A DNA stretch of 63,622 bases from a virus (lineage: Duplodnaviria > Caudoviricetes): IMG/VR virus record IMGVR_UViG_3300045747_000073, positions 1-63,622 of that record. The stretch is one strand, 5' to 3'. A program made the position numbers and the translations under genes. The notes beneath the pieces were generated by a model, which made no database searches, was not told the origin of the DNA, and saw only the letters and a list, made by a program, of their open reading frames with translations. Of the stretch, positions 1,415-31,495 are shown one piece after another. Each line of letters opens with the position of its first letter. Position 1 is the first letter of the stretch.

Positions 1415-4400
1415 ATGGCAACAATCATTCAGGGAAGACCAGTAACACGGGTTCCATCGGCTTCCACATCAGAGCGAATGCTCGCCTATCTTGGGGTGAA
1501 CCCTAATCTGGTTCCACCGATTGAAGAGGCAGTTGTTCCCGGGGCAGAAGCCTCACAGCAAGCGGTAGATACTATTGTTCCGGAGATGCTAGCGGTACCC
1601 CCGCTAGGGGGTCGGGGGAACTCTGCCGTACAGTTCGCCCCACCACTCGAACCAACATCTACACCGGAAGACTTGGCTATGCTCTCTCAATCGCCGATGG
1701 CGGGTAGAGAACGTTATTCAGTTGAGAACGTGGGTGGTGTTCCCGTTATGGATCCTGCTACTGGTGCTAATAAGGTAACCCCTGTAGGCATGGATCAGTA
1801 CGCCAAAGAGCGTGCTAACCAACTACAGTCACTACCAAACTATTCCCAGATTGATTCAGGCAAGAGCCCAACCGAGTATGCCTCTGAGGTTCTTCAGGAG
1901 CATGCCCGGTCTACTGGGAAGATGACACCTGAACATGCCCGTGAGATCGAGAACTGGGCGGATACTAGTGGTAACATCTTTGGTATCATCCAAGATAGAA
2001 CGATGGCTAACCTGTTTACTCAACCTAAGTTCTTCTCAACCAACCAAGACTATCTTGATGCAGGGCTTAAGGTTCCTGCTGCTACAGAGTTGATTGTTGA
2101 GAACGGATTAGAGGGGCATGAGAAGAATATTGCCACGGCTATCGGTGTGGGTATGAGCATGGGTGTTGGGCAAACACTGATGTATAAAGATGCTGATACT
2201 AAGGATCCTGTTAGTCCAACAGGTCGTACAATGACTGATGCCAGACCACTTGTGGACATCATCAATTCCACTATGGCCTTCGCTCAGAATGCCTTGGATA
2301 ATATGGGCTACAGTGTTCCACCTGAAGTTGTTCGTAAGTTTGCGACTATTCAAGCTCACTCTGAGATTGCTGATGGTAACCTTATCGAGATGAAGGATGA
2401 ACGGGGTCGTTCGGTATTTGGTGCCACACCAGACACTAAGGACTACTCCCGTAAGATGTCTTACTTAGCAGAAGCCTTGAGTGGTGATACCAAGCGTAAG
2501 GGTGTTTCATATGCACCTAATATCTCTGGATCAACCTTTACTGCACCCGGTAGCCAGCTGACTAAGGGGTCCATCACTCCTGATGGAACTAAGGCAACTA
2601 ACGCAGAAGTTGTGAAGGACTTGCTGTCATCCATCCAGTACGTTTACCGCCCTATGGATGTGGCCTACAAAGAGCTAGAGCTTAATATGATCCAAGAAGC
2701 TATGGAGCCTGAGGGTCGTTGGTCTAATAGTGAGTTTGCTAAACGTAACAAGGTGTCTAAAGCTAACTACAATGCGGCTATGGCCGAGTTCAAGCCACCA
2801 GAAGGGTATGACCCAGCAGACCCACAGCAAGTAGAGAAGTTCCAGAAGGACAAGGCAGAACATGCCCGTAGCGTTATCAATGATAAGCTTAAGCTGTTGA
2901 ACTATGATGTCAACACTGCTAAGGGTATCGCCGCCCCATTCTATATCTCCTTGTTGCATGACAACGCTAACCAACGGTTCTACGAGAACACTCGCGGTGC
3001 TGATGCAACTAACTCTAAGACCGGTGTTCGTGAGATGCGTAATCCGTTGAACCAAGACTGGGTTCGTCCTACTAGTTTGTTTGATTCCAAAGAAGTTGAA
3101 CGGATTAAACGGGAAGGCACTGCTGCCCTGTATAAGAACGGTAATGCTAGACAGACTGCCTTTGACAACATGAATATCTCTGATCTGAATGCGGTTGGAA
3201 CAATGATTGCTGCTGTAATTAACTACAATACAGTAGTGAACTCAGACAAGACCGTGCTTAAGCTTCCTGAGAGTGTTCTGTTGGGTATGTATACCCCTGC
3301 TATTGGTGGTGCCTTGGCGCAGTTAGGTGCCCAGTACAAAGCATTCATGGCTAATCCTAAGCAGGGCGATCATACCAATATCAAGCAACACCTAGCGGCC
3401 ATGCCTACTGGTGAAGCACTGGGTAATAAGAACTTGTGGGATAGCTTGGATTCTCTGCTGACCGGGTTCAATGATCCCAACCTCAAGCAGAAGCACGTAC
3501 TAATGTCCTATCTGAACTTTGATGACGGTAATCAGAATGGTATCTTCTTGCAGTCTTTGTTCTATGGTGACTCACCCAATGCTCGTCGTCTGGGTACGTT
3601 CGATCCTACTCTAAACGACATGCGGCAGTTAGCTAGTGGTGTTATTAAGGGTGAGATCAAGAACTTACTAAAGGACAACCCAGAAGCACTCGCTGCTTGG
3701 GGTAACTTCTTTGATGATGTCGGTAAGGATGACAAGTTCGCGGCAGATATGTTCAAGAAGCCTATCATGCGTAACTCGTATGGTATGGATGCTTCCATGT
3801 TTGAGACCCACATCTTTGACTTCTTGGTAGAGAAAGAGGATGCATTTACTAAGCATGTACTAGATACTGGTGTATACAAAGACATGGGTGAGGCTGCAGC
3901 AATGCTCAACAGGGCATTAGAAGCAACACTCCATAAGATTGTTAATCAGCAGTATAGCTCAGTGGTTAAGGCGGCAGGTCGTATGATGGCAGCAGTTGGT
4001 GGATACCCTATTCTTAAAGCACCTGACGGTGACGATATGGTTCTTACACCAGTAAGTCTACAGGGTGTTAACCAACAAGCTAACGACAAGCTTGAGTACC
4101 GCACCCTGCTTAGTGGTGAACGGGTTATGGTTAAGAACAAGGCATACAAGACGGTTGATATTGCTACCGAGGGTGGTGACGTTATTAGCACACCAATAGC
4201 CACTCGCCAAGCCAATCCCGCGTTCCATAAGGGTGTACAGACCTATTACCACGATGGTACTGGCGAGGTATCTACCTTCAAGAACTTCGCAGGCTCAGGT
4301 CTGAAGAACTACATGGCTGTGATGCCTATTCAAGGTGCTGATGGCTCGCTGGTTAAGCTTACGACACTTGCAGTGAACAAGAACAGAACCAATAAGGCTG

Positions 4401-5149
4401 TTCTGCCTGTGTCCTACAACCACGACGCTATTAACTCTACGGGGGCTGGTGCGTTGTACTATCGTAACGCCTACAACAACATTGCCATCCCACAGGCCAT
4501 CCCAGAGATTGCTAAGTTTGGTAAGAGGCTTGAAGCAGCTCTGATGCAAGAGATCCAGAAGACAAAGACTAAAGTATCTGGCATGGGCACTTGGATTGGT
4601 ATCGGTGAAGATGGTGATTACCCGGGCATGGGTGGTTTGTTTGATGAGCTATACGAGAAGATCAGACCAGACGGTTCCTACAAGAACTACTTCTTGCTCC
4701 GGCAAGGGTATGATGTAGATAATAAGTCTGTTCCTTCTGATGTTAAACAAAAGGCATTGTCCTCATGGGATAAGTACTCCGGTAAGATCAAGGACGCAAT
4801 CAACGAGGCTAAGAAGCTGGGTTGGCGTGAGCCCGGGTCTATTGATGAGAACATCCGGGCTGTTGCTGTTGTCAAGCAAGCAGACTATATCAAGATGATT
4901 GATCTGGCGGGTAGACAGCTTAAATTGTTTGGTGACTCCGACAGCAAGCTACACTCTTGGGCCGCTAACTTTGAGAACAAGGTTCTTAAGACGGGTCGTG
5001 ACTTAGCCCTAGCCACTAAGCAGGGCGGTATCGGGCAGATGACTGCTTCGGGTGGCGCTAAGGCAATGTCAGCGGATAAGCTGTATAGCAAACCAATTAC
5101 CGGGTCTCCTGAGCCAAGCACTACTAACCAAGAAGAAACCCCTTTCTAA
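1415..5149 (+). CDS. Divergent single-subunit RNA polymerase, putatively virion-associated (1244 aa)
   Basis: Ordered motifs NQRFY, FDDGNQNG (A, D704), KKPIMRNSYG (B, K781-x7-Y789-G), PIQGADG, NHDAI (C, D1004); last gene of the ejection-protein block. Confidence 0.8.
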   Translation: MATIIQGRPVTRVPSASTSERMLAYLGVNPNLVPPIEEAVVPGAEASQQAVDTIVPEMLAVPPLGGRGNSAVQFAPPLEPTSTPEDLAMLSQSPMAGRERYSVENVGGVPVMDPATGANKVTPVGMDQYAKERANQLQSLPNYSQIDSGKSPTEYASEVLQEHARSTGKMTPEHAREIENWADTSGNIFGIIQDRTMANLFTQPKFFSTNQDYLDAGLKVPAATELIVENGLEGHEKNIATAIGVGMSMGVGQTLMYKDADTKDPVSPTGRTMTDARPLVDIINSTMAFAQNALDNMGYSVPPEVVRKFATIQAHSEIADGNLIEMKDERGRSVFGATPDTKDYSRKMSYLAEALSGDTKRKGVSYAPNISGSTFTAPGSQLTKGSITPDGTKATNAEVVKDLLSSIQYVYRPMDVAYKELELNMIQEAMEPEGRWSNSEFAKRNKVSKANYNAAMAEFKPPEGYDPADPQQVEKFQKDKAEHARSVINDKLKLLNYDVNTAKGIAAPFYISLLHDNANQRFYENTRGADATNSKTGVREMRNPLNQDWVRPTSLFDSKEVERIKREGTAALYKNGNARQTAFDNMNISDLNAVGTMIAAVINYNTVVNSDKTVLKLPESVLLGMYTPAIGGALAQLGAQYKAFMANPKQGDHTNIKQHLAAMPTGEALGNKNLWDSLDSLLTGFNDPNLKQKHVLMSYLNFDDGNQNGIFLQSLFYGDSPNARRLGTFDPTLNDMRQLASGVIKGEIKNLLKDNPEALAAWGNFFDDVGKDDKFAADMFKKPIMRNSYGMDASMFETHIFDFLVEKEDAFTKHVLDTGVYKDMGEAAAMLNRALEATLHKIVNQQYSSVVKAAGRMMAAVGGYPILKAPDGDDMVLTPVSLQGVNQQANDKLEYRTLLSGERVMVKNKAYKTVDIATEGGDVISTPIATRQANPAFHKGVQTYYHDGTGEVSTFKNFAGSGLKNYMAVMPIQGADGSLVKLTTLAVNKNRTNKAVLPVSYNHDAINSTGAGALYYRNAYNNIAIPQAIPEIAKFGKRLEAALMQEIQKTKTKVSGMGTWIGIGEDGDYPGMGGLFDELYEKIRPDGSYKNYFLLRQGYDVDNKSVPSDVKQKALSSWDKYSGKIKDAINEAKKLGWREPGSIDENIRAVAVVKQADYIKMIDLAGRQLKLFGDSDSKLHSWAANFENKVLKTGRDLALATKQGGIGQMTASGGAKAMSADKLYSKPITGSPEPSTTNQEETPF

Positions 5150-5201
5150 ATTAAAACCCCACAAGGTATCCTTATAGGACGCCTTGTGGGGTTATATTTT
5201 T
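5148..5201. terminator. Bidirectional rho-independent terminator between convergent arms
   Basis: AACCCCACAAGG...CCTTGTGGGGTT stem (5155-5193) with A-rich left flank and T-rich right flank. Confidence 0.85.
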
Positions 5202-5445
5202 AGTTCATTGCTTCTTTGATTCGTGACCGTGCTAACTCAGCTTGGGAGTCTGCTCGTGCCCTTGCTGCTCCCGCATCCATACCTCGACGGATATACTCGT
5301 TGTAGTTCTCTTGCTGCATCTTGCTCACTGCGGCTGCGTTGATCTTAGGGGTGCCAGCTAGCTTAGGGTCTAGCCCTAACTCTTGGCATACCTCTTCGTC
5401 TGTAGTGTCTCCACCACGGAGGGCATCTAGGTTGTAGTGTTTCAT
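5200..5445 (-). CDS. Hypothetical protein (81 aa)
   Basis: ORF abuts the Dps stop and ends at the terminator. Confidence 0.7.
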   Translation of the reverse strand: MKHYNLDALRGGDTTDEEVCQELGLDPKLAGTPKINAAAVSKMQQENYNEYIRRGMDAGAARARADSQAELARSRIKEAMN

Positions 5446-5927
5446 TTAATACTCTTCCCGGCTGATGCCTTTACTTTCCAGTTCAATTTGTTGAGTGCTT
5501 TGCTGTAGTCACCCAGCATAGTAGCTACACCAGCATAACCAGAGTCTTCTGCTAGATCATAGAGTGCTTGTGTTGACTCAATAAGCTCATCAAGCTCTTC
5601 GTTCATCTCAATCATCATTGACTTACTGTCCTTGACGCTGGGTTCAGCCTCATCTACTGAGGATGCGCTAATCAATTGCTCAAGGCTAGTTAGCACAGGC
5701 TTGTCTAGTTGCCTAATGGTTTCACCAAGGGTATCATGGGATTCCCACAAGTACTCATAGATCTCTTGGAAGAGCATGTGGTCTTGTAGAAAAGTTGGAC
5801 CCTGAATATTGAAATGAAAGATGTGTGACTTAAAGTACACAAGAAAGTTATCTGCCCATAGCTTCTGAAGTGGTGCTGCGATAGCACCATTACTACCAGT
5901 ACTCAACGGTGATTTATTTGTTGCCAT
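5442..5927 (-). CDS. dps: Dps/ferritin-like protein
   Basis: KSHIFHFNIQGPTFLQDHMLFQEIY...DTLGE ferroxidase-centre pattern; start reassigned to ATG 5927 after AAGGAA. Confidence 0.88.
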   Translation of the reverse strand: MATNKSPLSTGSNGAIAAPLQKLWADNFLVYFKSHIFHFNIQGPTFLQDHMLFQEIYEYLWESHDTLGETIRQLDKPVLTSLEQLISASSVDEAEPSVKDSKSMMIEMNEELDELIESTQALYDLAEDSGYAGVATMLGDYSKALNKLNWKVKASAGKSIK

Positions 5928-6175: not shown

Positions 6176-6192
6176 CCTTTAGGTACCAGCTA
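6176..6192 (-). promoter_or_regulatory. Putative phage RNAP promoter TAGCTGGTACCTAAAGG
   Basis: Copy of the 17-bp repeat family, upstream of the dps block. Confidence 0.8.
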
Positions 6193-6321: not shown

Positions 6322-6534
6322 TCATCCAAACTTCCTTTCCAATAATGCTAAGATCTCTTCCAAGTCAATATCAGAGACCTCATCCAAGTCATCTAAATCG
6401 AACGGCTTGTCAGGGTATATCTTAAGCAACTCATCACGAGTTACCCACTGAGTATTACCCGGCCAGTAACCCGCATGGTAGTGCATGTCATCGGGGTATT
6501 CACTTCCTAGATCATGCATACACCACTCACACAA
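6322..6534 (-). CDS. Hypothetical protein (70 aa)
   Basis: ORF overlapping the nrdJ end in a co-oriented run. Confidence 0.5.
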   Translation of the reverse strand: MCEWCMHDLGSEYPDDMHYHAGYWPGNTQWVTRDELLKIYPDKPFDLDDLDEVSDIDLEEILALLERKFG

Positions 6535-7417
6535 GCTAATTGTTGAACACCCTCAACCTGATCGGAGTATTCCTCGAAGTCATTCCAATCAATCCCGGCA
6601 GGAATCTTAGCAGCCATATCCTTGTACTCCTGTTCAGTGCATTCTTCGTAGGGTGCTTGTTGATATGTGCCACCATCGTCCGGCAGGAACGATACGCCAG
6701 TACACTCATCGAAGTGGTTATAAACCCATGACCCAACCTCCATCCATTCATTCTCCTTTATGGAGATAGTTACTGATGGATTATGGTCAGTGTACCATGT
6801 CTTGTACTTGAGCCATAGTTCTAAGTGTTGAATCGCCGTAAGATCCTTCTTAGTAAACCCGGCGCATTTCTGTGGAAACGAGAAAACCACAGTATCTTGA
6901 GGTTTCATAACGCAGTCTTCATGAGGGAATCCTTGCTCAATAAGGAAGGTAGTCATTGGATCCTTCTTATCCTGTCGAATACGACGAATGTAGAAGGGTG
7001 CATGCCCCGGGTGGATACCACTAGATGTCTGAGTAAGCTGGCTCACCGTGCCCTCAGGTTTGATCGTGGTGATTGCCTTTGACCGTGGGATGCCCAGGGT
7101 ATCAGCCCAGATATTGTTTGTCTCTGTGGCACAATCTGATAGCTTCTTGAGGATGTGCTCAAGAGAGATGATAGACTCACCACGGAGGATTGGGTTGTCA
7201 AGGATACCAGTCATGGATACACCCAACAAACGCTCCTCTTCAGTGTTCTGCTGCCAGATCTTACGCAGATACGGGAAGTCAGTGAGGGTGGCTTGCATGG
7301 TACCCATGATAGTAGCAATGCGTACTTTCTCCAGCAAGGTTTCGATGGTATCTTGTGGGGATACTACTACAGTAGATAGGTTACAAAATTGTTGTGGACG
7401 CAATAAAATCTCTCCAC
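6507..7417 (-). CDS. nrdJ: Class II ribonucleotide reductase, exon 2
   Basis: (C)GEILLRPQQFCNL, TTIKPEGTVS, C-terminal CVSGVC. Confidence 0.92.
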
Positions 7418-7513: not shown

Positions 7514-8140
7514 CTAGATCAGACTATCGCATGTAATATGTTTCCACGTTCTATTGTATCGAATATTGTTTATAACACAGTGTTTAACATCAAAGATATT
7601 GGCAATTTCTTTTGTAGTTTTATCGGTGATTAGCAAGCTTTTAATTTCCTTAACTTGCTTCTCATCCAGAATTGCTCTACCATTCTTTGATCCGGCTTGT
7701 ATACCTCTATAGATATCCGGTCGTTCTGAATGTATCTTCAATGCTCGTTTGCTACGGGCTTCTTTGGTGTCCTTCTTGCTTATGGCAAGTTTGGTTGCCT
7801 CAGAAGTTGCTTTCCTGTGCTTTTCTTTATTCTCGGGTATGTTGTACCAACTAGGTTCAACCCCTAACTCACCACCCATTTGAAGGTTTAACCCAATCAT
7901 TTGTGTGGGTCTATAGTAAGCCTCTGCCAAGAGAGCTTCCTGTAAACTTAGGCTTTGATCCATCATTTCTATTTCGATATCTGACCAAGCGGTTGACTTT
8001 AAGAAACATACCAGAGGTGTCTGGTGTTTGTTCCTTCTGTGCCCACGAATTCGCTCAGATAGGTCTTTAGTTATTCCAACATAGCCCTCTGACATAACGT
8101 CTGTGTGACCTTTATGCCTAATCCAATATACTGTGTACAT
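7514..8140 (-). CDS. Intron-encoded GIY-YIG homing endonuclease with C-terminal HTH-like region
   Basis: VYWIRH...GYVGITK; lies in the P8 loop and extends through P7'. Confidence 0.85.
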   Translation of the reverse strand: MYTVYWIRHKGHTDVMSEGYVGITKDLSERIRGHRRNKHQTPLVCFLKSTAWSDIEIEMMDQSLSLQEALLAEAYYRPTQMIGLNLQMGGELGVEPSWYNIPENKEKHRKATSEATKLAISKKDTKEARSKRALKIHSERPDIYRGIQAGSKNGRAILDEKQVKEIKSLLITDKTTKEIANIFDVKHCVINNIRYNRTWKHITCDSLI

Positions 8141-8182
8141 AATTACCCCTCTCACTTAGTCGTTCACGGTGAATAACTTTCT

Positions 8183-8199
8183 CCTATAGGTACCGGCTA
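8183..8199 (-). promoter_or_regulatory. Putative phage RNAP promoter inside the intron, TAGCCGGTACCTATAGG
   Basis: 17-bp family copy about 43 nt upstream of the endonuclease ATG. Confidence 0.8.
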
Positions 8200-9263: not shown

Positions 9264-9742
9264 TTATTTTTCCTATTCAAAATATTGTTTCCTGCTGAGA
9301 CTAATCGTGCACCCGTAACACTTTTGTTACTGCTATAAATACCTAATATACCCGGTATCTGGTATAGGCGTACACCTGAATTGAGTAATTCCACGGCCCT
9401 GAGTGCGTGCTCTTCCGTGTAATTGTAAGCCTTGAATACGTCTGGGTTACCTTGTTTGTTGAACAGGGGTTTAAATAGCTTTATTGTCGAGCTTTCCTTT
9501 TGTAAGGCGGTCGGCCTATCTAACATTGTTTCTATAATTACGGCTACATCTGCCATAGTATAGCCCATATAATACAGATCGGTTATCCATTTAGTATGAT
9601 CTTCACTTCTGCTAGTGCCAGATGACGTTCCCGTTGCCCATGCACGGGATCCCGTTCCAATTCCTATATACATTATCTCACCAGTTTGTGGATCTATATG
9701 GTTATAGATGTAATACAACTCCTTCATGGGCCTCCTTAACAA
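9260..9742 (-). CDS. GIY-YIG-like endonuclease
   Basis: YYIYNHIDP...MYIGIGTGSRAW, conserved Glu and PLFN. Confidence 0.65.
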   Translation of the reverse strand: MLRRPMKELYYIYNHIDPQTGEIMYIGIGTGSRAWATGTSSGTSRSEDHTKWITDLYYMGYTMADVAVIIETMLDRPTALQKESSTIKLFKPLFNKQGNPDVFKAYNYTEEHALRAVELLNSGVRLYQIPGILGIYSSNKSVTGARLVSAGNNILNRKNK

Positions 9743-11925
9743 AAGAAATACTGACTGTTTTGGACATCGTTTATATCCAGTGATCCGAGAACTGGTTGTG
9801 TTGCTGAGAAGCTAGGTTTATACTCCATCAAGTTATCTTCGAGTAGATCAAAGAAGTTTTCTACATCATACTGAGCTATGAAGGTCATCTTAGTGATGTC
9901 CTGCAATAGATCAACGTCAGACGCATGACAACTAAAGCTATCATGTACCGCAGCGAATGACCCATTGAATGCTACAATGGTGTTGGCCATGTGAGCAGCA
10001 TCATAACTATGTACTACATTCGGGCTGATCCCCGAGGCGAATGATCTCCGGCATGGGATCTTCTCTCCGGTAGTCTTACCGACTACATCTATCTTAACCA
10101 CATGCATGATCCTGCCTGTCTTACTCCCGGGTAAACCCTTAATGGTTCCCCTCTGCTTGTGCTCATGCTGAAGGTTTGCCTTGTATACGACCGGGAAACC
10201 GCTAGGTGTCTTCCAAGACAACTCATTAGAGCCATTAGCGAGTTCATGCTCAGCCATCTTCTGAAGGTACTTAGTAGTCTTCAGTGGTCCTTGGCATACC
10301 TCGTTGATTGAGTCTATGAGCTTACCAGCCAACATCTCGCAGTCATCTTCGCTGATGTTGTACTTGTGGTTGAACCCTAGCATATGCAGATCATCGTACA
10401 TGTTAGAAGCTATCCGCTTCTTACCTGCTGAGTACGCACGAGTCATAGAGCCCCTCTTAGCAATGCCCTTGCGGATATGCTTCATGGGTATACCACGACT
10501 AGCGAACCAGTCAGGGAGTTTACCTACTAGGTTCTTAGCCACGGCTACGTAGAAGTCCTTCTGTACAGCTTCATTCGTGAGTGACACTAACGATCCTGCT
10601 GCTTTGTCCTTGGACATTGCTGCAAGGTGTTGCCAGCCATTGTTCGAACCATCGATACCCACGGGTAGCCCTGAGTAGTAAGGCTTGCCTAATGCTTGTG
10701 CTATGGTGTAGTTAAAGAGTTCTACACAACAAGATAAGAACCCATACGGCTTCTCTGCTTTAGGTGTCAACTGCTCAGCCTTACCCAACTTAGCAATCAT
10801 GCTATAGTTCTCGATAGTCCACTGAAAACGATCCTCCATCGTCATCTTGTCTACTGATATGGTGTCCAGACCTTCTTCTTCCAAGTACTTCCGGTAGTCG
10901 GTTGTCGTCCAGCTAGGGATCTCATTGATATCATATGATTGATTAAATGAGGTTGCAGCCTTGATGCATATCCACCGATAGCCACTCTTAGTAACCTCCT
11001 TTGTATCCTCAAACAAGAAAAGACTTCTCGCAAGGTCTCCCCCTTGATAAGACAAGAATGATTCAGTGTAGTACATACGCCCACGGTAGTCACAAGATAC
11101 CTCCTGATAGAATGTTTTATCCAGCAGCATTACTGCCTTCTTAATTACTTGCTCGTACTCGTACTTCTTGGAGATCAGTCGTTGTACTCGTGTGTCCCTG
11201 TGTCCAAGGAAGGGGGTGCCTTCGTAAGTGTATTCGCCCCTTGGGAGATCGCCAATTGGATACGAGCCGATAACGCCATCTCCATCAACAAGCTCGATAG
11301 TTGATTTTGGGCTTTCTGCAATTGCTGTGGCGAGTACTGCACCATTGATTTTCCATCCTTGCTGGCGTAGAACTTCCAAGGCTTTAACGAATCGCTCATT
11401 CAAACACTCCTTAAATTTATCTTCGTCAGTCCATCCCTTGATGAATGACTGGTGGGTTAGCGGGCTTTTAAGCCCCGATATCCTAGGTAACGGGACAAGG
11501 GATGTGCCAACGAGTACTGGCTTGATACTGTTAATGTCACCCTTGAGTAGCAGCATGTATGGCGCTTTGAAACCATCGTATGCCCTCTCGATATCTATCA
11601 AGTCATCCTGAAGAAAGGTTTCAATCAGGATGTCACCTAACGCAAGTATATCCTTAATATATGGGTCAATAAGCCGCAGCCTACTAGCCAGTTGAGTACC
11701 TATCATGGTGCTCACAAAGGTTAGTTTAACTGCGGCCATATGGGTTGCACTCTTATTACGGATACAGTACCGTGTTAATGAGTCCCATGCTTCCTCTACA
11801 ATTTCCTCCAATTCGAATTCCCATAATGGGTATTGTGCCAGAAGTAAACAACCTTGGTTGTACATTTTTTCTGACTCCGGTATTACCTTATTGACTCGTT
11901 GAGCCAAATAAACCGATGGATCCAT
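9736..11925 (-). CDS. T7-like single-subunit RNA polymerase (729 aa)
   Basis: DYRGRMY, IDGSNNGWQH, KRGSMTRAYS, SPNVVHSYDA, VHDSF. Confidence 0.95.
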   Translation of the reverse strand: MDPSVYLAQRVNKVIPESEKMYNQGCLLLAQYPLWEFELEEIVEEAWDSLTRYCIRNKSATHMAAVKLTFVSTMIGTQLASRLRLIDPYIKDILALGDILIETFLQDDLIDIERAYDGFKAPYMLLLKGDINSIKPVLVGTSLVPLPRISGLKSPLTHQSFIKGWTDEDKFKECLNERFVKALEVLRQQGWKINGAVLATAIAESPKSTIELVDGDGVIGSYPIGDLPRGEYTYEGTPFLGHRDTRVQRLISKKYEYEQVIKKAVMLLDKTFYQEVSCDYRGRMYYTESFLSYQGGDLARSLFLFEDTKEVTKSGYRWICIKAATSFNQSYDINEIPSWTTTDYRKYLEEEGLDTISVDKMTMEDRFQWTIENYSMIAKLGKAEQLTPKAEKPYGFLSCCVELFNYTIAQALGKPYYSGLPVGIDGSNNGWQHLAAMSKDKAAGSLVSLTNEAVQKDFYVAVAKNLVGKLPDWFASRGIPMKHIRKGIAKRGSMTRAYSAGKKRIASNMYDDLHMLGFNHKYNISEDDCEMLAGKLIDSINEVCQGPLKTTKYLQKMAEHELANGSNELSWKTPSGFPVVYKANLQHEHKQRGTIKGLPGSKTGRIMHVVKIDVVGKTTGEKIPCRRSFASGISPNVVHSYDAAHMANTIVAFNGSFAAVHDSFSCHASDVDLLQDITKMTFIAQYDVENFFDLLEDNLMEYKPSFSATQPVLGSLDINDVQNSQYFFC

Positions 11926-17930: not shown

Positions 17931-17947
17931 CCTTTAGGTACCGGCTA
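17931..17947 (-). promoter_or_regulatory. Putative phage RNAP promoter TAGCCGGTACCTAAAGG
   Basis: 17-bp family copy upstream of the polymerase/primase/RNAP block. Confidence 0.82.
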
Positions 17948-22515: not shown

Positions 22516-23094
22516 TTATCGTGTGAAAGTGTGGTTTCTATTGTGCTTACGTCGCCCTGACAAGCAGTTGTATATGATCTCAGGGCTAAACCCTAAATCT
22601 CGCATTTCTTTTTGGTTGTGCAAAATTATCTGTTCGCCCGTGTCCCTATTGGTAGCTGTTACAGGCCCTTTGTATGTTGGGTTGTTTTCTCCGGAAGTAT
22701 CTTTCTTTCTCCTAGCTTCAGACATTTTCTGTCTGTGCTCGTCTGAGAACTGCCTTCCTTTCTGGCTTTCAGATATTCTTTTGCATTGCTCTGGTGTCCT
22801 TTTAGACCCAAGGTTCCAGTTGCTGCCTAGTTGCCCGTCACCACCTTCGGTTAGGTTGGCTAACTCGTAGCCTTCTTGCTTAAAGAATGAGATCATTCCC
22901 ATTTCGTACTTTAATGCATCTTCATGTGTCTCAAAGTGTTTTAGGTAGTCACTAACAAACCCGTGCTTGGCTACTATTCTTTTCCAGAACCTGTTTCTGC
23001 CAGAAGACACATTCTTTCGTCCATCTTTTCCTTTACCTATGTAGAAGGGCCGAAGCTCGTCTTTTGTAAAGTGTATGTATACATAGTGTTTCAT
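22516..23094 (-). CDS. GIY-YIG homing endonuclease with NUMOD3-like repeats
   Basis: YVYIH...FYIGKG, NLTEGGDG, SDEHRQKMSEA. Confidence 0.85.
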   Translation of the reverse strand: MKHYVYIHFTKDELRPFYIGKGKDGRKNVSSGRNRFWKRIVAKHGFVSDYLKHFETHEDALKYEMGMISFFKQEGYELANLTEGGDGQLGSNWNLGSKRTPEQCKRISESQKGRQFSDEHRQKMSEARRKKDTSGENNPTYKGPVTATNRDTGEQIILHNQKEMRDLGFSPEIIYNCLSGRRKHNRNHTFTR

Positions 23095-23108: not shown

Positions 23109-23125
23109 CTATTAGGTACCAGCTA
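23109..23125 (-). promoter_or_regulatory. Putative phage RNAP promoter TAGCTGGTACCTAATAG
   Basis: 17-bp family copy followed by AAAGGAGG RBS. Confidence 0.82.
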
Positions 23126-25604: not shown

Positions 25605-25621
25605 TAGCCGGTACCTAATAG
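25605..25621 (+). promoter_or_regulatory. Putative late promoter TAGCCGGTACCTAATAG
   Basis: 23 bp (25599-25621) identical to 31473-31495 upstream of terL. Confidence 0.85.
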
Positions 25622-25661
25622 GAAGGCTCTAATAGTAGAACCTAATTAATAAGGATAAATT

Positions 25662-26036
25662 ATGTCAGAAGTTAGCAAAGCGGATAAATATCCACAGCTT
25701 ATTCCTTTCAACAGTGAGGCTGCACGGGCTGCACAGCGTAAATCAACAGAACAAAAGTGGTGCCAACGGGCTGTTGCAGAAAACTACAAGCTTAATGCTC
25801 GTACTTTCATCAAGATCATGGCTGATTTGCCTGACCTTGGCCCCTTGGAAATTATGAAATTAGCCATACACGACGCACTAGATAAGAGCGATTTTGAGGC
25901 TGCTGCCAAGTATGCGTCTATGCTTGCCGAATATCAAATGCCCAAACTTGCTCGAATTGAATCTACGGTGACCACTCGCACGTCAGACCTCTCTGATGAG
26001 GAGCTTAAGGCTATCATTGACAAGGAAGGATTATAA
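25662..26036 (+). CDS. Putative terminase small subunit
   Basis: Helical 124-aa protein with AEYQMPKLARIE and DLSDEEL tail; same promoter as terL; no terS next to terL. Confidence 0.6.
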   Translation: MSEVSKADKYPQLIPFNSEAARAAQRKSTEQKWCQRAVAENYKLNARTFIKIMADLPDLGPLEIMKLAIHDALDKSDFEAAAKYASMLAEYQMPKLARIESTVTTRTSDLSDEELKAIIDKEGL

Positions 26037-26037
26037 T

Positions 26038-26664
26038 ATGTTTTTCGTATATCTCCATAAGAAAGGAGATACGGGCGAACCTTTCTATGTTGGTAAAGGT
26101 ACAGGTAAGAGGATTTATTTTCACTCTGGCCGAAACCAATGGTGGCATAATATTGTTGCTAAACATGGTATAGCCTACGAGTTCTTAGGTTACTTCGAAC
26201 TTGAGGTGGACGCTTTCGCGTATGAGAAGGACAGGATTGCCTTCTATCGTTCAGAGGGCTACACTTTATGTAACCTTACTGATGGTGGTGAGGGTGCATC
26301 TGGTCGTGTTCTTTCGGAAGAATCTCGTGCCAAGATGATTGCTTCTGCCAAGGCTAAACCAGCACAATCACAAGAGGCTAGAACTAAACGTAGCCAATCT
26401 ATGTCTGGTCGTGTTCGTAGCCCTGAGCACTGTGCTGCTCTTAGTGAAGTTCAGAAAGGTAAACCACATAGCTCTGAGCATACAGCAAAGGTTGCTCTCG
26501 CTCGTCTTGGTATGAAGCTTTCTGATGAAACTAAAGCCCGTATGTCTGCCTCTAGCAAGACCCGTCCTCCTATCTCCGAGGAAACAAGGCAGAGGCTTCG
26601 TGATGTTGCTGTTCTTCGTGAACAAGCTAAGAAGCAGGCACAAGCCTTACTCACTCTCCTATAG
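26038..26664 (+). CDS. GIY-YIG homing endonuclease with NUMOD3 repeats
   Basis: FVYLH...FYVGKG, NLTDGGEG, repeated SEE(T/S)R motifs; ATG 26038. Confidence 0.85.
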   Translation: MFFVYLHKKGDTGEPFYVGKGTGKRIYFHSGRNQWWHNIVAKHGIAYEFLGYFELEVDAFAYEKDRIAFYRSEGYTLCNLTDGGEGASGRVLSEESRAKMIASAKAKPAQSQEARTKRSQSMSGRVRSPEHCAALSEVQKGKPHSSEHTAKVALARLGMKLSDETKARMSASSKTRPPISEETRQRLRDVAVLREQAKKQAQALLTLL

Positions 26665-26674
26665 GTACCGGCTA
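26658..26674 (-). promoter_or_regulatory. Putative phage RNAP promoter TAGCCGGTACCTATAGG
   Basis: 17-bp family copy facing ssb across the inverted cassette. Confidence 0.8.
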
Positions 26675-27307: not shown

Positions 27308-27362
27308 ACCTGCTTTCTTGTTGGGGGAAGGTTAGTGTAGCCGTGGGTTAGGTAACAGAAGG

Positions 27363-27620
27363 TCATTTTGAATGTTTTCCTATCAAGTAAATAACTTCGT
27401 TCAGGTTGATCGTACCCATATTACAGGTGAAGTCACCATTGTCTTTAGTGTGATTAACAAAGTAACTCATCAACCCGGGATATCGCCAGTAGTCAGTGGA
27501 ACAGTAGATGACTATGCCTGTGTTGCCTAGGTGGATCTCGTTACGGCCTTCAAAGAGTAAGTCATCCTTTAGTGAGTACTCAATGTTGAGGGAGGCAAGA
27601 GCTGTCAAGAGTTCTTTCAT
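27363..27620 (-). CDS. Hypothetical early protein (85 aa)
   Basis: AGGAG RBS. Confidence 0.6.
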   Translation of the reverse strand: MKELLTALASLNIEYSLKDDLLFEGRNEIHLGNTGIVIYCSTDYWRYPGLMSYFVNHTKDNGDFTCNMGTINLNEVIYLIGKHSK

Positions 27621-27623
27621 TTG

Positions 27624-27950
27624 TTATACTCCTACACATGGATACATTTTAGTCAAGATGAATGCAACAGAGTCCCTAGCATCTAACTTCAATGCAGATT
27701 CACCGTTAGCGCCCTTAGAGACACTAGTGATGACCTCCCCTATCCTTGTGAATAAAAACTTGCCTGAGACCCCTTCTGGTACACAGATGCGTGTGTCTGA
27801 GGCTACACCTAGGATGAACCCTAGAGCGTATGCTTGGGCGGCATCGTTACCGTTGATACGATCGTTTAAAGTCTTTGTATCGATGAATCCTGCCTGTGCT
27901 GTTAGTGCAACAAAGGACAAGAGTAATGTAGCTATGCTGTATTTTTTCAT
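27624..27950 (-). CDS. Secreted Rap1a/Tai-like protein
   Basis: Signal peptide (AQA), GFILGVASD, ICVPEGV, terminal YPC. Confidence 0.6.
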   Translation of the reverse strand: MKKYSIATLLLSFVALTAQAGFIDTKTLNDRINGNDAAQAYALGFILGVASDTRICVPEGVSGKFLFTRIGEVITSVSKGANGESALKLDARDSVAFILTKMYPCVGV

Positions 27951-28231
27951 TCTGGATCCTTCACTTCTATTACATCAAATACTGCTATACAACCTTCCAT
28001 AGGTTTAATACCATCGTTGTAGAGTGATTCTCCAATGTTATCAAAGAACCTGCGATTGTGACCAATACCAGTAATATGATCACATACAGCAAGAAGTAAC
28101 GATGCTTCTTCTAGAGTGAGGCTGATGTTGATGGATGTAACTTGAGGAACCATTTTGGTGGTTGTTGTGTAGATCATTCCGAAATATCTCCTGTTAGTTC
28201 TATCTTGGATACAGGTGCACCTTGTACACAT
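27947..28231 (-). CDS. Hypothetical early protein
   Basis: True start probably MIYTTT. Confidence 0.5.
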   Translation of the reverse strand: MCTRCTCIQDRTNRRYFGMIYTTTTKMVPQVTSINISLTLEEASLLLAVCDHITGIGHNRRFFDNIGESLYNDGIKPMEGCIAVFDVIEVKDPE

Positions 28232-28357
28232 AGCGATGAATACAAGTCACCAGCTAACTTAGCGCTAATACGCGAGCACCAAGCCCGTATCTCTGAGGCT
28301 TCTTCCTCAGTGGGCCTTAGGGTGAAGGTCTTGGTTGTTGTTGGGGTAAGGTTCATA

Positions 28358-28672
28358 CTAGCTTGCCATCTCCCTAAGTTCTCTGATTGATAATGTACTA
28401 ACAAATAACAAGAAGAAGATCCTTGTATCTGTCATCTCACCCGGTTTACCAAAGCCATCATTGTAAGCGGCATCGCTGCTGGATAGTTTTCGTGTGATTT
28501 GATAGGCGTTATATGCGCCAAGCTTTTCCGCTGTGTAGCAGATACCATTGGCATAGCTACCGTAGTTGGCCTCTAGTGTTCCTCTTTCGAGGATCTGTCT
28601 ACATGCTGTTCGGTATGCAGTCATGTCGTTGATTGAGAATTTAGGACGTAGTCCAATAGCTATGCTATTCAT
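28358..28672 (-). CDS. Hypothetical early protein (104 aa)
   Basis: Co-oriented ORF; its first codons overlap double-hairpin copy C. Confidence 0.55.
   Translation of the reverse strand: MNSIAIGLRPKFSINDMTAYRTACRQILERGTLEANYGSYANGICYTAEKLGAYNAYQITRKLSSSDAAYNDGFGKPGEMTDTRIFFLLFVSTLSIRELREMAS
28643..28668. promoter_or_regulatory. Double-hairpin element, copy C
   Basis: AGGAC-GTA-GTCCA-ATAGC-TAT-GCTAT. Confidence 0.6.
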
Positions 28673-28765
28673 GCTTTCACCCTTTTCATGATTAGTGCTA
28701 ATATAACAAAGATTAAGAATAGTATCAGTTCCATAGGTTACTCCACAATTTGTTTCGTAACTGCG

Positions 28766-29071
28766 TTACTCAACTGAATAAAACCAAGTGTTTGCATCAT
28801 TACCACCAGCAGCAACAAAGATTACTGGCTTACCTGACTCGTATGCCTTCTGAAGGTCTTTGGTGAGCTTGATGAGGGCTTTCTCGTTAGTAATACGAGA
28901 ATAGAGGCACTTACGAGTGCGTGAGTCAGAACAATCAACAAAGATTGATGTCGTAGCTTCATCAACACGAGGCACTGAGGTGATCACTACGGGGAGACTT
29001 TTACGGTCTGGTTGAGTGATGTTGTTGGTTACGAAGGAGACAGAAACAGATGTGAATTTAGGAGTAAACAT
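28766..29071 (-). CDS. Hypothetical early protein, apparent paralog of 30933-31286
   Basis: Shared NN, DxxxRxC, PxxFxAA and AxxWF patterns. Confidence 0.65.
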   Translation of the reverse strand: MFTPKFTSVSVSFVTNNITQPDRKSLPVVITSVPRVDEATTSIFVDCSDSRTRKCLYSRITNEKALIKLTKDLQKAYESGKPVIFVAAGGNDANTWFYSVE

Positions 29072-29110
29072 AATATATGAGCTTAAGTTGGTTGTAGTGT
29101 ATAGGGACCG

Positions 29111-29127
29111 TAGTCGGTACCTATTGA
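29111..29127 (+). promoter_or_regulatory. Variant promoter TAGTCGGTACCTATTGA
   Basis: 13-bp core intact; embedded in hairpin ATAGG-G-ACCG-TAGT-CGGT-A-CCTAT. Confidence 0.6.
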
Positions 29128-29153
29128 GAGTAAATTTAACTGTGCTAGCTAGT

Positions 29154-29170
29154 TAGCTGGTACCTAATAG
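29154..29170 (+). promoter_or_regulatory. Putative phage RNAP promoter TAGCTGGTACCTAATAG
   Basis: 17-bp family copy with no credible downstream + gene. Confidence 0.75.
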
Positions 29171-29276
29171 GAAGGTTGATTAGTTACAGTTTAGCGGGGG
29201 ACTGTAACAGCATTTAAATATGCATTAATCGGCCATCTTAGGGGTCTGCCCAGCCCCGCCCCTAGTATGTTAAAGT

Positions 29277-29302
29277 AGAACGTAGTTCGACAGCTATGCT
29301 GT
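29277..29302. promoter_or_regulatory. Double-hairpin element, copy B
   Basis: AGAAC-GTA-GTTCG-ACAGC-TAT-GCTGT, intergenic. Confidence 0.65.
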
Positions 29303-29653
29303 AATATTGAAGAGTATATTAGTAAGTACCTCTTAAACGTTAAGTTGTAGTTAGTGAATCCTTAAAGGAAAAGAATAAAGGTTACTTGGTAGTATACTTG
29401 AAAGTATATTATAGGAGAGGAAGGATTTTTTGATATAACACTTCTTGATACACTTTGTAATGCCTCCTCTGTAGTGATCCTATGAGTAGGGAGCAACGGC
29501 ACGTTGTGACCGCTGGTAAGTGGTGTTTGTCAGAATGATGTACAAATTGTTCGAAAGGTGATCCAAAATGAACAATTTGAACGTTTGACACTCATCACAC
29601 ACAAAATCACTCACAAAATCACCATAAAAATTAGCCCCTGCTTGTGTAGTGTA

Positions 29654-30265
29654 CTACCTAGTCCTCCCACAAGCCATATCTAAATACTTAATAGTACCCT
29701 CAGCAAATCTCTCTGCTGCTTCCTTGTTAAGATGTACTCCATCGGTAGTATCTGATAGACCTTTGTATAATATATTCTGTCTCCAATTAGCATCAATGAT
29801 ATCACGGTTAACAGAGGTATATGTGTGGATATATGTATCTAATATTGCTGCATTATCTATTTGTGTCTGATTAAGTATGCTATTAGGCGCGTTAGTTAGT
29901 GGTACTATTCCTGTTACCACAATGGTTGCTCCTTTAATGCTCTCGATAGTGCTCTTGAATAGTGCCTCTACCTCTGGCTCTGGTGTATCACCCACGTCAT
30001 TACCGCCAAGCTCTATTAGTACTACTTGAGTGTGGAACTCTTTTGTTATCTCTCTGAGCTTCATGCCACCAACTGCTAAGTCAGTGATGATGAAGTTAGG
30101 TCGTCTTGCTCTGATGTAGTCTGAGAAGCCTACTAGGGTGTTCTTAGCGATGATACTGTCGCCAGTCATTGTAATGGTGCATGGTGTTACTGTAGTAGGA
30201 GCTATGCTCCCGCCCCCGCCACACCCGGCTAGTGCTACCGCTAGTAGTGTTAGTAGTGCTTTCAT
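29654..30265 (-). CDS. SGNH/GDSL hydrolase lipoprotein
   Basis: Lipobox LAGC; GDSI, AVGG, LGGND, DGVH. Confidence 0.88.
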   Translation of the reverse strand: MKALLTLLAVALAGCGGGGSIAPTTVTPCTITMTGDSIIAKNTLVGFSDYIRARRPNFIITDLAVGGMKLREITKEFHTQVVLIELGGNDVGDTPEPEVEALFKSTIESIKGATIVVTGIVPLTNAPNSILNQTQIDNAAILDTYIHTYTSVNRDIIDANWRQNILYKGLSDTTDGVHLNKEAAERFAEGTIKYLDMACGRTR

Positions 30266-30266
30266 G

Positions 30267-30506
30267 TTAGTTCACCTCTGTGGTCATCACTTCTTCACTG
30301 CTATCGTATATGCCAGTCACCTCGACTATGGCACCCGGCAGGTCAGTGATGAACATGCAGTTGGCTAGTACCTTAGCAGTGGTTGCTGTGAGGTAGTTGT
30401 GTCCACCGATAGTGGTGATAGTGCAACCGAACTCAGCGGCTGCTTCGTGGATCTCTTCGTAGTTGATGTTGAGGCCGTCGATAGTGGTAAGTGCAATGTA
30501 TTTCAT
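30267..30506 (-). CDS. Hypothetical early protein (79 aa)
   Basis: AAGGA RBS. Confidence 0.6.
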   Translation of the reverse strand: MKYIALTTIDGLNINYEEIHEAAAEFGCTITTIGGHNYLTATTAKVLANCMFITDLPGAIVEVTGIYDSSEEVMTTEVN

Positions 30507-30575
30507 GATAAATCCTTGTAGAGTGTATTAGCCAAATGCACTGTACTTACCCGGTGCAGGTCTCTCTGTGCTTAA

Positions 30576-30601
30576 CGGACGTAGTCCGCGAGCTATGCTC
30601 G
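30576..30601. promoter_or_regulatory. Double-hairpin element, copy A
   Basis: CGGAC-GTA-GTCCG-CGAGC-TAT-GCTCG, two perfect 5-bp stems, intergenic. Confidence 0.7.
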
Positions 30602-30932
30602 TTGTCCAGAGAATGGACAGAGTAACTTAATACCCGTGGTGACTGATGATCACTTCAAAGTCAGTGTTCGGGAAGAATGCCAGCAGGTATGCTTCGTTCT
30701 CCGACAGTTCAATCATGAAGTGGTGGTCTTGTTTGGTGAAGATGAAGTATGACATGATAAGCCCTATTGGTTGAGTGAATGATTGACAATGAACATACTA
30801 ACCACATGGACGATGCCAGTGATTAGAGCGAGTGCCATGATGATACTATTGCTAGTGTCTATGGCATAGAAGATCGCTGATCCCCAGATAGCGTACAGTA
30901 CGATGTCAGCGAGTATGTTGCCCATGATAACC

Positions 30933-31286
30933 TCAGAAGGGCAACGACAGGTCAACGTTCTCAGTACGCATAGCAAGGTAGTCGTCAGCAGTGATGACAC
31001 CAACGAACCATTGCTCAGCACTCCAGTCACGACCATTGTAACGAGCAGCAGCAAATGCACACGGTTGGTTGACTACCCCTCGTGCACTGTTTGCAATAGC
31101 ATCTAGAGTGAGACTAGGCATAACCCTCACAGCCATTGCAGTCTTGAGAACACACTGACGGAATGAGCCATCAGCAAGCTTAACAACCACACGATCACTG
31201 AGCACCTTGACTTCTGTTACGATGCCAAGGCTCCAGTTAGCGCCCGACAGGTTGTTGAGAGCGATTGATTTACGAGATGCAGCCAT
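30933..31286 (-). CDS. First gene of the early arm (117 aa), ends DLSLPF
   Basis: GGAGG RBS before ATG 31286; the longer 31460 start runs through a low-complexity tract. Confidence 0.7.
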   Translation of the reverse strand: MAASRKSIALNNLSGANWSLGIVTEVKVLSDRVVVKLADGSFRQCVLKTAMAVRVMPSLTLDAIANSARGVVNQPCAFAAARYNGRDWSAEQWFVGVITADDYLAMRTENVDLSLPF

Positions 31287-31294
31287 GATAGCCT

Positions 31295-31451
31295 CCAAAA
31301 GAAACAGGGCAAGAGCGCCCAACCAACACAACAGAGCAACAACCCACAACGCGAGCACAAGGCAAGCCAAGGACGCACGGGAAGAGCCCACAAAGGAAAC
31401 AAGGGGGTCACACAAAGGAACAAGGCGAACCCACAACACACACAAGAAACC
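31295..31451. other. 157-nt tract with a single T on the + strand; candidate genome-end region
   Basis: Only T is at 31408; repeat CACAAAGGAA(A)CAAGG at 31389 and 31411; lies where the two arms diverge. Confidence 0.6.
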
Positions 31452-31478
31452 TTTTGACACGCAAAGAGAGACACCGAT

Positions 31479-31495
31479 TAGCCGGTACCTAATAG
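31479..31495 (+). promoter_or_regulatory. Putative late promoter upstream of terL
   Basis: TAGCCGGTACCTAATAG. Confidence 0.85.

Follow-up and report, generated by a model that had tools for sequence, protein, structure and literature searches.

We analyzed the viral record IMGVR_UViG_3300045747_000073 (63,622 bases; this whole stretch of DNA is called the window below) for features that may together form a two-step transcription programme: a divergent RNA polymerase (RNAP) candidate encoded by the open reading frame (ORF) 1415-5149, a T7-like RNAP encoded by ORF 9736-11925, a 17-bp promoter, and a tandem hairpin element in the early region. Because bases 1-167 recur at 63456-63622, the window represents a complete, circularly closed phage genome, and the virus record has the same length of 63,622 bases. 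The genome is that of a freshwater podophage of about 63.5 kb, with an overall layout as in coliphage N4. Its two gene arms diverge at ~31.5 kb and converge at ~5.2 kb, where terminator-like hairpins on both strands separate them (5156-5191). The minus-strand arm runs from 31.3 to 5.2 kb, and its first genes are small ORFs without known family. It also encodes a gp2.5-like single-stranded DNA-binding protein (SSB) identified by PHROG, and, by Pfam, a ligase, a DNA polymerase A, a 5'-3' exonuclease, a primase-helicase and pieces of a class II ribonucleotide reductase (RNR). The plus-strand arm carries terminase, portal, scaffold and major capsid genes (PHROG), then tail-type genes, and very large ORFs last.

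A divergent single-subunit RNA polymerase is predicted at the end of the late arm

ORF 1415-5149 (plus strand) codes for a stand-alone protein of 1244 amino acids (aa; P0001), in which an earlier note on this DNA had seen a putative virion RNAP (vRNAP). The protein matches no Pfam or PHROG family, among the latter phrog_2206, annotated as 'virion RNA polymerase', and no PDB chain was found by phmmer. No Pfam family was detected in its 12 relatives from a clustered protein collection, and a family profile retrieved only chance matches from the PDB (E 0.2). The AlphaFold (AF2) model of residues 200-1244, calculated from a 28-sequence alignment, has a mean confidence (pLDDT) of 87.2 and a predicted template modeling score (pTM) of 0.86. 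A Foldseek search of the PDB with this model returned 73 matches at E<=1e-3, and the best 50 of the 73 are all T7, mitochondrial or N4 single-subunit RNAPs, aligned with probability 1.00 over 820-1180 columns at template modeling (TM) scores of 0.34-0.42. The matches include yeast mitochondrial RNAP (1.2e-12), T7 RNAP (6.6e-11 to 1.9e-9), human POLRMT (about 1e-9) and N4 mini-vRNAP (3c46_B, 2e-8 over 1176 columns). Among the predicted viral structures in BFVD, we found T7-like phage RNAPs and RNAP pieces of N4-like vRNAPs, with a family A DNA polymerase appearing first at rank 47.

The family alignment contains several invariant islands, namely FDDGNQNGIFLQ (with D704; FDDGNQNG), FKxPxMxxxYG (K781, Y789), VHD (H1003, D1004) and YRNAYNNIAIP. 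Polymerase motifs A, B and C were tentatively assigned by pattern and predicted secondary structure. The motif residues D704, K781, Y789, H1003 and D1004 are invariant or nearly so in alignments of 12 and 28 sequences; the motif A and C aspartates and the motif B lysine and tyrosine are found in 28/28 sequences, which are 27-49% identical overall. The order and pattern of the motifs parallel DGSNNGWQH, K..YSAG and VHDS in the phage's own T7-like RNAP. The model places the aspartate of motif A at the end of a beta-hairpin, with the motif B residues on a helix and the motif C His-Asp pair at a beta-turn-beta. Two candidates exist for the T/DxxGR motif, DERGR at 328-332, where the arginine is nearly invariant and the glycine is not, and the invariant ANQRF at 518-522. 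Based on the fold matches together with the conserved motif A/B/C residues, we predict that ORF 1415-5149 encodes a single-subunit RNAP with an intact catalytic site and that it represents a new sequence family. That it encodes an RNAP, as the earlier note supposed, appears almost certain from the predicted fold (AF2, Foldseek).

The family is large. We located it in 50 loci in IMG/VR, and in a library of 1.84 billion proteins it has 209 representatives at 50% clustering (E<=1e-3), none of which is named. Palm and fingers form the best-conserved region across the family. The best 150 of the 209 representatives measure about 150-1600 aa; full-length ones have about 1000-1600 aa, the shorter ones are fragments, and none is N4-sized. 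A dedicated search for longer or fused relatives of 2178-5000 aa found none, which is weak evidence. Among 50,697 phage records searched by tblastn with the RNAP candidate, only the roseophage CRP-7 (MK613349) was detected, and the distant family member P0073 had no match among phage isolate records. CRP-7 is the only cultured relative that we found; its gp33 is homologous to the RNAP candidate (hhalign probability 99.6%, E 5.5e-25). In the portions of the literature available to us, we found no description of this RNAP family, nor of a vRNAP in phages of the CRP-7 type.

The polymerase gene closes a cysteine-free late block

The gene of the RNAP candidate comes last in the late operon, after several genes for large proteins without known family, as the gp50 gene does in N4. 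Since the ends of the circular record overlap, ORF 60727-63621 and ORF 2-1414 together encode a single 1380-aa protein directly upstream. This protein is cysteine-free and predicted to be all-helical; its first part is encoded at 60727-63622 (plus strand), and its C-terminal 470 aa (1-1414, plus strand), for which there is no PHROG or Pfam match, end in a stop codon that abuts the ATG of the RNAP gene. This candidate ejection protein is preceded by three cysteine-free late ORFs of 222, 211 and 793 aa (56725-60719, plus strand), a candidate ejection-protein operon; no Pfam or PHROG family was found for any of the three, and an Atlas search with the 793-aa ORF yielded sub-threshold leads only.

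Five consecutive proteins between 56725 and 5149, with a total of 3850 aa, thus contain no cysteine, including the 1244 aa of the RNAP candidate. In the same phage, the T7-like RNAP has 12 cysteines, the primase-helicase 10 and the DNA polymerase 15. N4 gp50 (3500 aa), gp51 and gp52 are devoid of cysteine, and so are gp33, gp34 and gp35 of CRP-7; across 28 members of the RNAP-candidate family we counted 0-2 cysteines per protein. Ejected podophage proteins commonly lack cysteine. The composition fits an injected protein; an enzyme active solely in the cytoplasm of the producing cell has no obvious reason to be free of cysteine. Gene position and composition together make it probable that the RNAP candidate is injected with the DNA. 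In N4, according to the sections available of a published account, gp50 is encoded behind gp51 and gp52, the three forming an ejection-protein operon (PMC13434306). For other podophages, vRNAPs have been guessed from size and absence of cysteine alone, as stated in the accessible part of another report (PMC10747016).

The 1380-aa protein weakly matches phrog_2206 (E 2.9e-5, positions 184-450 of the 3406-position profile). By this sequence match, it is possibly a counterpart of the N-terminal domain of N4 gp50, which would fit an N4 gp50 that is split into separate genes. An hhalign comparison with the N-terminal 1000 aa of N4 gp50 gave a probability of 0.2%. The AF2 model of the upstream protein of a relative (locus L042, residues 194-1393) is poor (pLDDT 61.8) and all-helical, and its matches in BFVD stay at or below a TM score of 0.30 and carry no informative names. 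A resemblance of the N-terminus of the 1380-aa protein to a staphylococcal-nuclease motif was discarded, as four N-termini had no Pfam match at E<=1.

A T7-like RNA polymerase and its probable 17-bp promoters

ORF 9736-11925 on the minus strand encodes a monomeric, 729-aa T7-like RNAP (PF00940, 1.3e-52; phrog_414, 3.1e-93), and its translation contains the motifs DYRGR, DGSNNG, K..YSAG and HDS. The second, monomeric RNAP proposed for the replication block is thus present. None of the RNAPs encoded in the 50,697 phage records reaches 32% identity to it.

We found 11 matches to the 17-mer TAGCCGGTACCTAATAG within 3 mismatches, with 0.12 expected. A weight matrix scores 10 sites at 29.8-37.3 bits and a degenerate copy at 29111 at 18.4 bits, the best of 20 shuffles reaching 15.4 bits. 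A match at 49824 was rejected as a promoter: it is located inside a gene, scores under 12 bits and looks like a chance occurrence. What had been described as an 11-copy promoter in front of replication and late genes hence consists of 10 strong sites and one degenerate site with the proposed placement, the 49824 match being unsupported. At its end, each site reads TA(A/T)AG and then purines, and most sites are positioned a few bases before a ribosome-binding site (RBS) and ATG.

The sites occur in two forms. The form CCTA(A/T)AGG (CCTAWAGG) belongs to the replication arm and is found at four minus-strand sites. These are 26658-26674 (CCTATAGG, 30.4 bits), the first promoter of the replication arm; 17931-17947 (CCTAAAGG, 29.8 bits), the nearest one upstream of the DNA polymerase, primase-helicase and T7-like RNAP genes; 8183-8199 (CCTATAGG, 30.8 bits); and 6176-6192 (CCTAAAGG, 32.4 bits), about 1 kb past the stop codon of the RNAP candidate, a position that is kept in relatives. 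The second form, CCTAATAG, makes up the late promoters on the plus strand, which are located upstream of the large terminase gene (31479-31495, 34.7 bits), upstream of the portal gene (33531-33547, 32.1 bits) and 12 nt before the RBS/ATG of ORF 51224 (51195-51211, 31.1 bits). The same form precedes two homing-endonuclease-like ORFs: a plus-strand cassette with a NUMOD3 ORF (25605-25621, plus strand, 36.6 bits) and the GIY-YIG/NUMOD3 ORF 23094-22516 (23109-23125, minus strand, 37.3 bits).

A further CCTAATAG site is part of a tandem on the plus strand (29111-29170), in which the degenerate copy (29111-29127, 18.4 bits) is followed by a strong one (29154-29170, 34.9 bits). Both point rightwards, antisense to the early genes, with no ORF downstream and with an AT-rich trough behind them (GC 0.28 at 29300-29449). 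Tandem antisense promoters are present at the same place in relatives, with 3 copies in locus L053 (6714-6830) and 2 in L055 (3758-3823). They may represent a transcription-activated origin or serve in antisense shut-off of the early genes. The 17-mer very probably belongs to the T7-like RNAP and not to the other RNAP.

ORFs resembling homing endonucleases with GIY-YIG and/or NUMOD3 domains are found at 22516-23094 (minus strand), 25996-26664 (plus strand) and 56144-56728 (plus strand), and two of them are preceded by a T7-like promoter of their own. The orientation of the cassette at 25605-26664 is opposite to that of the arm around it, and a strong terminator-like hairpin (22512-22483) follows ORF 22516-23094.

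Tandem hairpins on the template strand of the early genes

In the window, the element ACGTAGTNCGNNAGCTATGCT is matched exactly three times, at 28646, 29280 and 30579, each time on the plus strand; shuffled sequences contain 0.05 matches on average, and 0/100 shuffles reach 3. Each element is composed of two abutting mini-hairpins with 3-nt loops, G(G/A)AC-GTA-GT(C/T)C and then NNAGC-TAT-GCTNN. Element 1 (28644-28669, plus strand) reads GGAC-GTA-GTCC + AATAGC-TAT-GCTATT, element 2 (29278-29302, plus strand) GAAC-GTA-GTTC + ACAGC-TAT-GCTGT, and element 3 (30576-30601, plus strand; folding z -3.5) CGGAC-GTA-GTCCG + CGAGC-TAT-GCTCG, the latter located 70 nt upstream of ORF 30506-30267. The stem of the GTA-loop hairpin thus has 4-5 bp. 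Pairing is retained in 27/27 stem cells across the three copies, with compensatory double changes in 3/9 pairs, while pairing in shifted controls amounts to 18-41%. With a covariance model of the three copies, no additional one was detected in the 63.6 kb, where the next-best site reaches 13.4 bits (E 0.41). The elements are therefore confined to the early region (28.6-30.6 kb), as had been claimed.

The three elements share one orientation and are embedded in a block of minus-strand ORFan genes. Because these early genes are on the minus strand, the plus strand is their template, and a G-N-A loop closed by C:G is formed on the plus strand only. N4 early promoters, in the account available to us in part, are template-strand hairpins with a 3-base loop, in which the closing C:G pair and the 5' G and 3' A of the loop are needed for extrusion and stability; N4 vRNAP reads -11A/G, -10G, -8G and +1C, and the stems have 5-7 bp (PMC4496689). 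We located the N4 P1 and P2 hairpins at 90-102 and 557-573 of the N4 record. All three window elements contain C-GTA-G and thereby follow the N4 rule of a C:G-closed G-N-A loop on the template strand. Taken together, our analysis slightly favors these hairpins as putative promoters of the virion RNAP candidate (element 1 being annotated as such, on the template strand).

Mini-hairpins with a C-GNA-G loop occur 4 times on the plus strand of the genome, and 3 of them are these elements. The fourth, CCAGC-GTA-GCTGG at 33525-33537, overlaps the T7-like promoter of the portal gene, which may be chance or a regulatory overlap. A lone GGAGC-TAT-GCTCC hairpin (30198-30210, plus strand) corresponds to the second half of an element, scores 10.6 bits with the element model and was left as a chance occurrence. 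Its position falls within the part of a GDSL-lipase lipoprotein gene (29654-30265) that encodes the signal peptide.

Relatives of the phage retain both polymerases

Loci carrying the RNAP-candidate family are denoted by L numbers. A T7-like RNAP gene is found convergent to the new RNAP gene, 3.0-5.7 kb away, in 35/35 related loci with at least 7.5 kb of downstream sequence. A homologue of the 1380-aa protein precedes the RNAP gene in all 41 loci that have 4.5 kb or more upstream. The 17-mer itself is present in 14/73 related loci, with lineage-specific versions elsewhere: the variant GAGTAGTCCCCTAATAGAGA is present in two relatives, and CRP-7 has the variant TAGTCC..TATTAAAAGG, one copy of which is located directly before its RNAP gene. 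Judged from the sequences, the 17-bp promoter changes together with the T7-like RNAP lineage among relatives.

CRP-7 has the same gene order as the window at low identity, with 31.7% for the T7-like RNAP and 51% for the capsid protein. Its three hairpin repeats are found before the first three early genes. In one relative, whose terminase is 74% identical, a different hairpin element of 52 nt occurs three times at the corresponding position and in the same orientation, and a change in its stem is compensated. Another relative has two copies of a 43-nt hairpin element. In an early intergenic region of CRP-7 (locus L001, 1443-1486), we noted four tandem 11-bp repeats, AAAACCTTGAT-like, which resemble iterons.

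Host RNA polymerase and the early leader

We scanned 1-34 kb of the window for sigma70-like sites and counted 24 against 31.1±5.7 and 17 against 27.1±5.2 (41 against about 58 in shuffles). The scan agrees with the earlier judgement by eye that no convincing sigma70 promoter is present, and it is weak evidence, since the host may use a promoter consensus other than the one scanned.

With 8 T in 192 nt on the plus strand, a tract of about 175 nt (31279-31453) between the first early ORF and the terminase promoter is nearly free of this base; nowhere else in the genome is a stretch depleted in any one base. A T-poor tract was found in 8/9 related loci scanned; in 7 of these it adjoins the terminase gene, and in L062 the distance is 3.3 kb. 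It is not present in L069 or in the CRP-7 locus (L001). The tract could serve as a packaging site or as an early leader without A, or it could mark a genome end; the proposed model would place the physical ends near 31.5 kb, next to the tract. The 170-nt leader in front of the first early ORF contains almost no A in its coding strand, so that a TATAAT-type -10 box is excluded at this place.

A two-step transcription programme and its alternatives

We consider it fairly probable that these parts form a two-step programme as a whole, an injected RNAP being followed by the T7-like RNAP. The cysteine-free RNAP would be packaged and injected with the DNA, like N4 gp50. Once inside, it would start on the extruded hairpins, with the plus strand as template, and transcribe the ORFan early genes leftwards. 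Part of this early transcription, or some other input, would reach the T7-like RNAP gene. The T7-like RNAP would then boost its own expression from the left-arm variant CCTAWAGG and transcribe the replication genes, and would transcribe the late genes, including that of the next-generation virion RNAP, from the CCTAATAG variant. Simultaneously, transcription from the rightward promoters at 29111/29154 would run antisense through the early promoters and genes, which may cause early shut-off or origin activation. The model of two polymerases and two promoter types, put forward in the earlier note, is supported in its structural part, by the RNAP fold, the position and composition typical of ejected proteins, the template-strand loops and the placement of the promoters. 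Of all steps, a possible dispensability of host RNAP is the one with the weakest footing, and full independence from it seems doubtful to us.

A number of observations weigh against the two-step programme. On the side of the enzyme, T7-like enzymes match the fold of the RNAP candidate at least as well as N4 does; hhalign of the 28-sequence family alignment with N4 mini-vRNAP gave a probability of 1%, outside the catalytic core; and the 1380-aa protein is tied to the N4 N-terminal domain by one weak PHROG match only. Regarding the hairpins, the loop centre is T and not the purine that N4 vRNAP reads, the stems have 4-6 bp, no consistent start base (C) can be placed 11 nt from the loop in the three elements, and element 1 is located inside the first codons of ORF 28672-28358. 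The element is also poorly conserved: its covariance model found no copy in 14 related loci (best E 0.35), other hairpin repeats were detected in 3/10 relatives examined (L055/L056, L071 and CRP-7), and a repeat screen found none in L053/L054, L062, L069, L070, L072 and L073. Of the co-occurrence of all four parts in related genomes, that of both RNAPs (35/35 loci and CRP-7) is confirmed, the promoter is found in 14/73 loci and as variants in other lineages, and the hairpin element was not detected in the 14 loci searched for it. In the early arm, no promoter of either type was identified for three ORFs at 31286-30627, which precede every one of the hairpins. The T7-like RNAP gene follows the nearest hairpin at a distance of 16.7 kb, its only mapped upstream promoter is of its own type (17931), and terminator-like hairpins are found in between at 26738-26722 and 22512-22483 (the strong one mentioned above). 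Given this distance and the own-type promoter, first expression of the T7-like RNAP needs read-through by the vRNAP, host RNAP or other input.

These gaps could be filled by a scheme of the T7 or phiKMV kind, in which the early genes, and initially the T7-like RNAP gene as well, are transcribed by host RNAP from promoters that our sigma70 scan has missed. The cysteine-free RNAP would then mainly be an ejectosome part or a DNA-internalisation motor, or would make few transcripts, and the hairpins would have another role. In phages of the phiKMV type, which rely on host RNAP, the RNAP gene also comes last in the replication block, and the early ORFs 31286-30627 and the T7-like RNAP gene indeed lack a vRNAP-type element to drive them. 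The host of this phage, whose sequence is carried by pond and wetland metagenome runs, may use a promoter consensus other than the one scanned, and the hairpin element is not conserved in relatives. Against this scheme, shuffled sequence contains more sigma70-like sites than the 1-34 kb scanned, where not one is well placed, and the A-poor coding-strand leader (170 nt) excludes a TATAAT-type -10 box there. The intact catalytic site found across the family argues for real RNA synthesis, and template-strand G-N-A hairpins are hard to explain otherwise. We regard such dependence on host RNAP as unlikely, in its transcriptional part as well as in the roles it assigns to the virion enzyme and the hairpins.

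The injected RNAP may also be real while the hairpins are not its promoters. They would then be single-strand initiation or origin signals, sites for regulatory proteins or RNA processing signals, the true early promoters having escaped recognition. Element 2 next to the tandem T7-like promoters and the AT-rich trough (GC 0.28) recalls the T7 primary origin, and such a role would accommodate the coding-region location of element 1 and the loop centre unlike that of N4; moreover, the hairpins fold on either strand. However, their common orientation fits the template strand of the early genes, the C:G-closed G-N-A loop is formed on the plus strand only, and three copies at the start of the early arm are found as in N4. 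No U-run follows the elements, and they are thus not intrinsic terminators. On balance, we hold non-promoter hairpins to be quite improbable. A more radical reading takes ORF 1415-5149 for a catalytically dead, structural ejection protein with the shape of a polymerase. Its extreme sequence divergence, with no profile method recognizing it, would be in line with this. In contrast, catalytic residues that are invariant in 28/28 sequences at 27-49% identity, and palm and fingers as the best-conserved regions in a family with 209 representatives at 50% clustering, speak for an active enzyme, and we deem a dead one highly improbable.

Comparison with known phages

The programme would resemble that of N4 in its first step and that of T7 in the rest. 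As in N4, there are two convergent arms, and a polymerase of single-subunit RNAP fold is encoded last in a late, cysteine-free ejection-protein block. Small C:G-closed, 3-nt G-N-A template-strand hairpins are found at the start of the early arm, and a second, T7-related RNAP is available for the next phase. Unlike in N4, the polymerase of the window is a separate 1244-aa protein and not the middle domain of a 3500-aa polypeptide, and no sequence homology between it and gp50 is detectable; by size, domain structure and sequence, the RNAP candidate is outside the N4 vRNAP family. The hairpins of the window are tandem, with a second, TAT-loop hairpin fused upstream that N4 does not have, and differ in their stems of 4-6 bp and T loop centre. 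In N4, the published description as far as accessible states that RNAPII is a heterodimer (gp15+gp16) that needs gp1 and gp2 and uses AT-rich minimal promoters, and that late genes need host RNAP together with N4SSB (PMC4496689). The second RNAP of the window, in contrast, is one chain with a long, specific promoter of the double-strand type, which also precedes late genes, and its gene is located at the far end of the replication arm and not among early genes. No family like N4 gp1 or gp2 was among the PHROG matches; a scan of 10 left-arm ORFs (24.2-31.3 kb) returned the gp2.5-like SSB and two families of unknown function only. With a fair degree of probability, the programme is a modified form of the N4 scheme, in which the vRNAP stands alone and the second RNAP is monomeric, recognizes specific promoters and transcribes late genes as well.

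The window shares with T7 and phiKMV (Autographiviridae/Autotranscriptaviridae) a monomeric PF00940 RNAP and 17-bp promoters directly before genes, with TA(A/T)AG and purines at their end. In T7, class II and class III promoters serve replication and late gene sets, and promoter variants likewise separate replication from late genes in the window. The DNA polymerase, primase-helicase, gp2.5-like SSB, exonuclease and ligase are of T7 type, and the RNAP gene is found at the end of the replication block as in phiKMV. The window differs from both in its genome, which is about 20 kb larger and has two divergent arms, in an extra RNAP among candidate internal virion proteins, and in having no recognizable host-type early promoters in the 1-34 kb scanned. 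Jumbo phages of the phiKZ type use virion and non-virion multisubunit RNAPs and are independent of host RNAP. The proposed programme is similar in that an injected polymerase would transcribe early genes and a second phage polymerase the rest; unlike the beta/beta'-like, multisubunit phiKZ enzymes, both enzymes of the window have the single-subunit T7 fold.

The closest parallel is CRP-7, which shares the architecture, a homologue (gp33) of the RNAP candidate, the cysteine-free gp33-35, a T7-like RNAP, T7-style promoter repeats and three early hairpin repeats. CRP-7 is marine and has 58 kb, identities are low (22-51%), and its hairpins, unlike those of the window, have 7-nt loops and overlap ribosome-binding sites. 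The available portion of the CRP-7 description lists gp33-35 as hypothetical and mentions only the T7-like RNAP.

Our analysis adds a single-subunit RNAP family that is unrecognizable by sequence, is encoded among ejection proteins and counts 209 representatives at 50% clustering. It suggests that a virion RNAP like that of N4 can exist without being part of a giant fusion protein. The N4 literature, as far as the consulted source goes, leaves open how virion RNAPs relate to heterodimeric or monomeric second RNAPs (PMC4496689), and a clade that pairs the new RNAP with a monomeric T7-like RNAP bears on this relationship. We can only tentatively envisage a widespread clade of freshwater and marine podophages with no need of host RNAP, in which an injected, hairpin-reading RNAP would act early and the T7-like RNAP in the middle and late phases. 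If true, this clade would represent an evolutionary bridge between N4 and T7 and a compact, fully orthogonal two-polymerase system. Two small orthogonal polymerases, one for hairpin and one for duplex promoters, would be useful as tools. The cultured member CRP-7, whose three large late proteins are annotated as hypothetical, makes the model testable.

Other features of the genome

The DNA sequencing runs that carry the sequence are labelled as pond and wetland metagenomes, and no RNA run is among the runs listed as carrying it. No Rfam family and no tRNA genes were found within the window. The RNR is split: ORF 8292-9263 matches the N-terminal RNR domains, and ORF 6507-7403 weakly matches the C-terminal part of the barrel (both minus strand). 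ORF 7514-8155 and the T7-like promoter at 8183 are located between the two pieces. CRP-7 likewise has two RNR coding sequences with another gene between them. In the plus-strand arm, ORF 43973-45226 encodes collagen-like Gly-X-Y repeats with a 9-nt period, and ORFs 45633-47635 contain glycine-rich repeats. GC rises up to 0.56 around 43973-47635, and the repeat-rich ORFs of this region probably encode fibre proteins.

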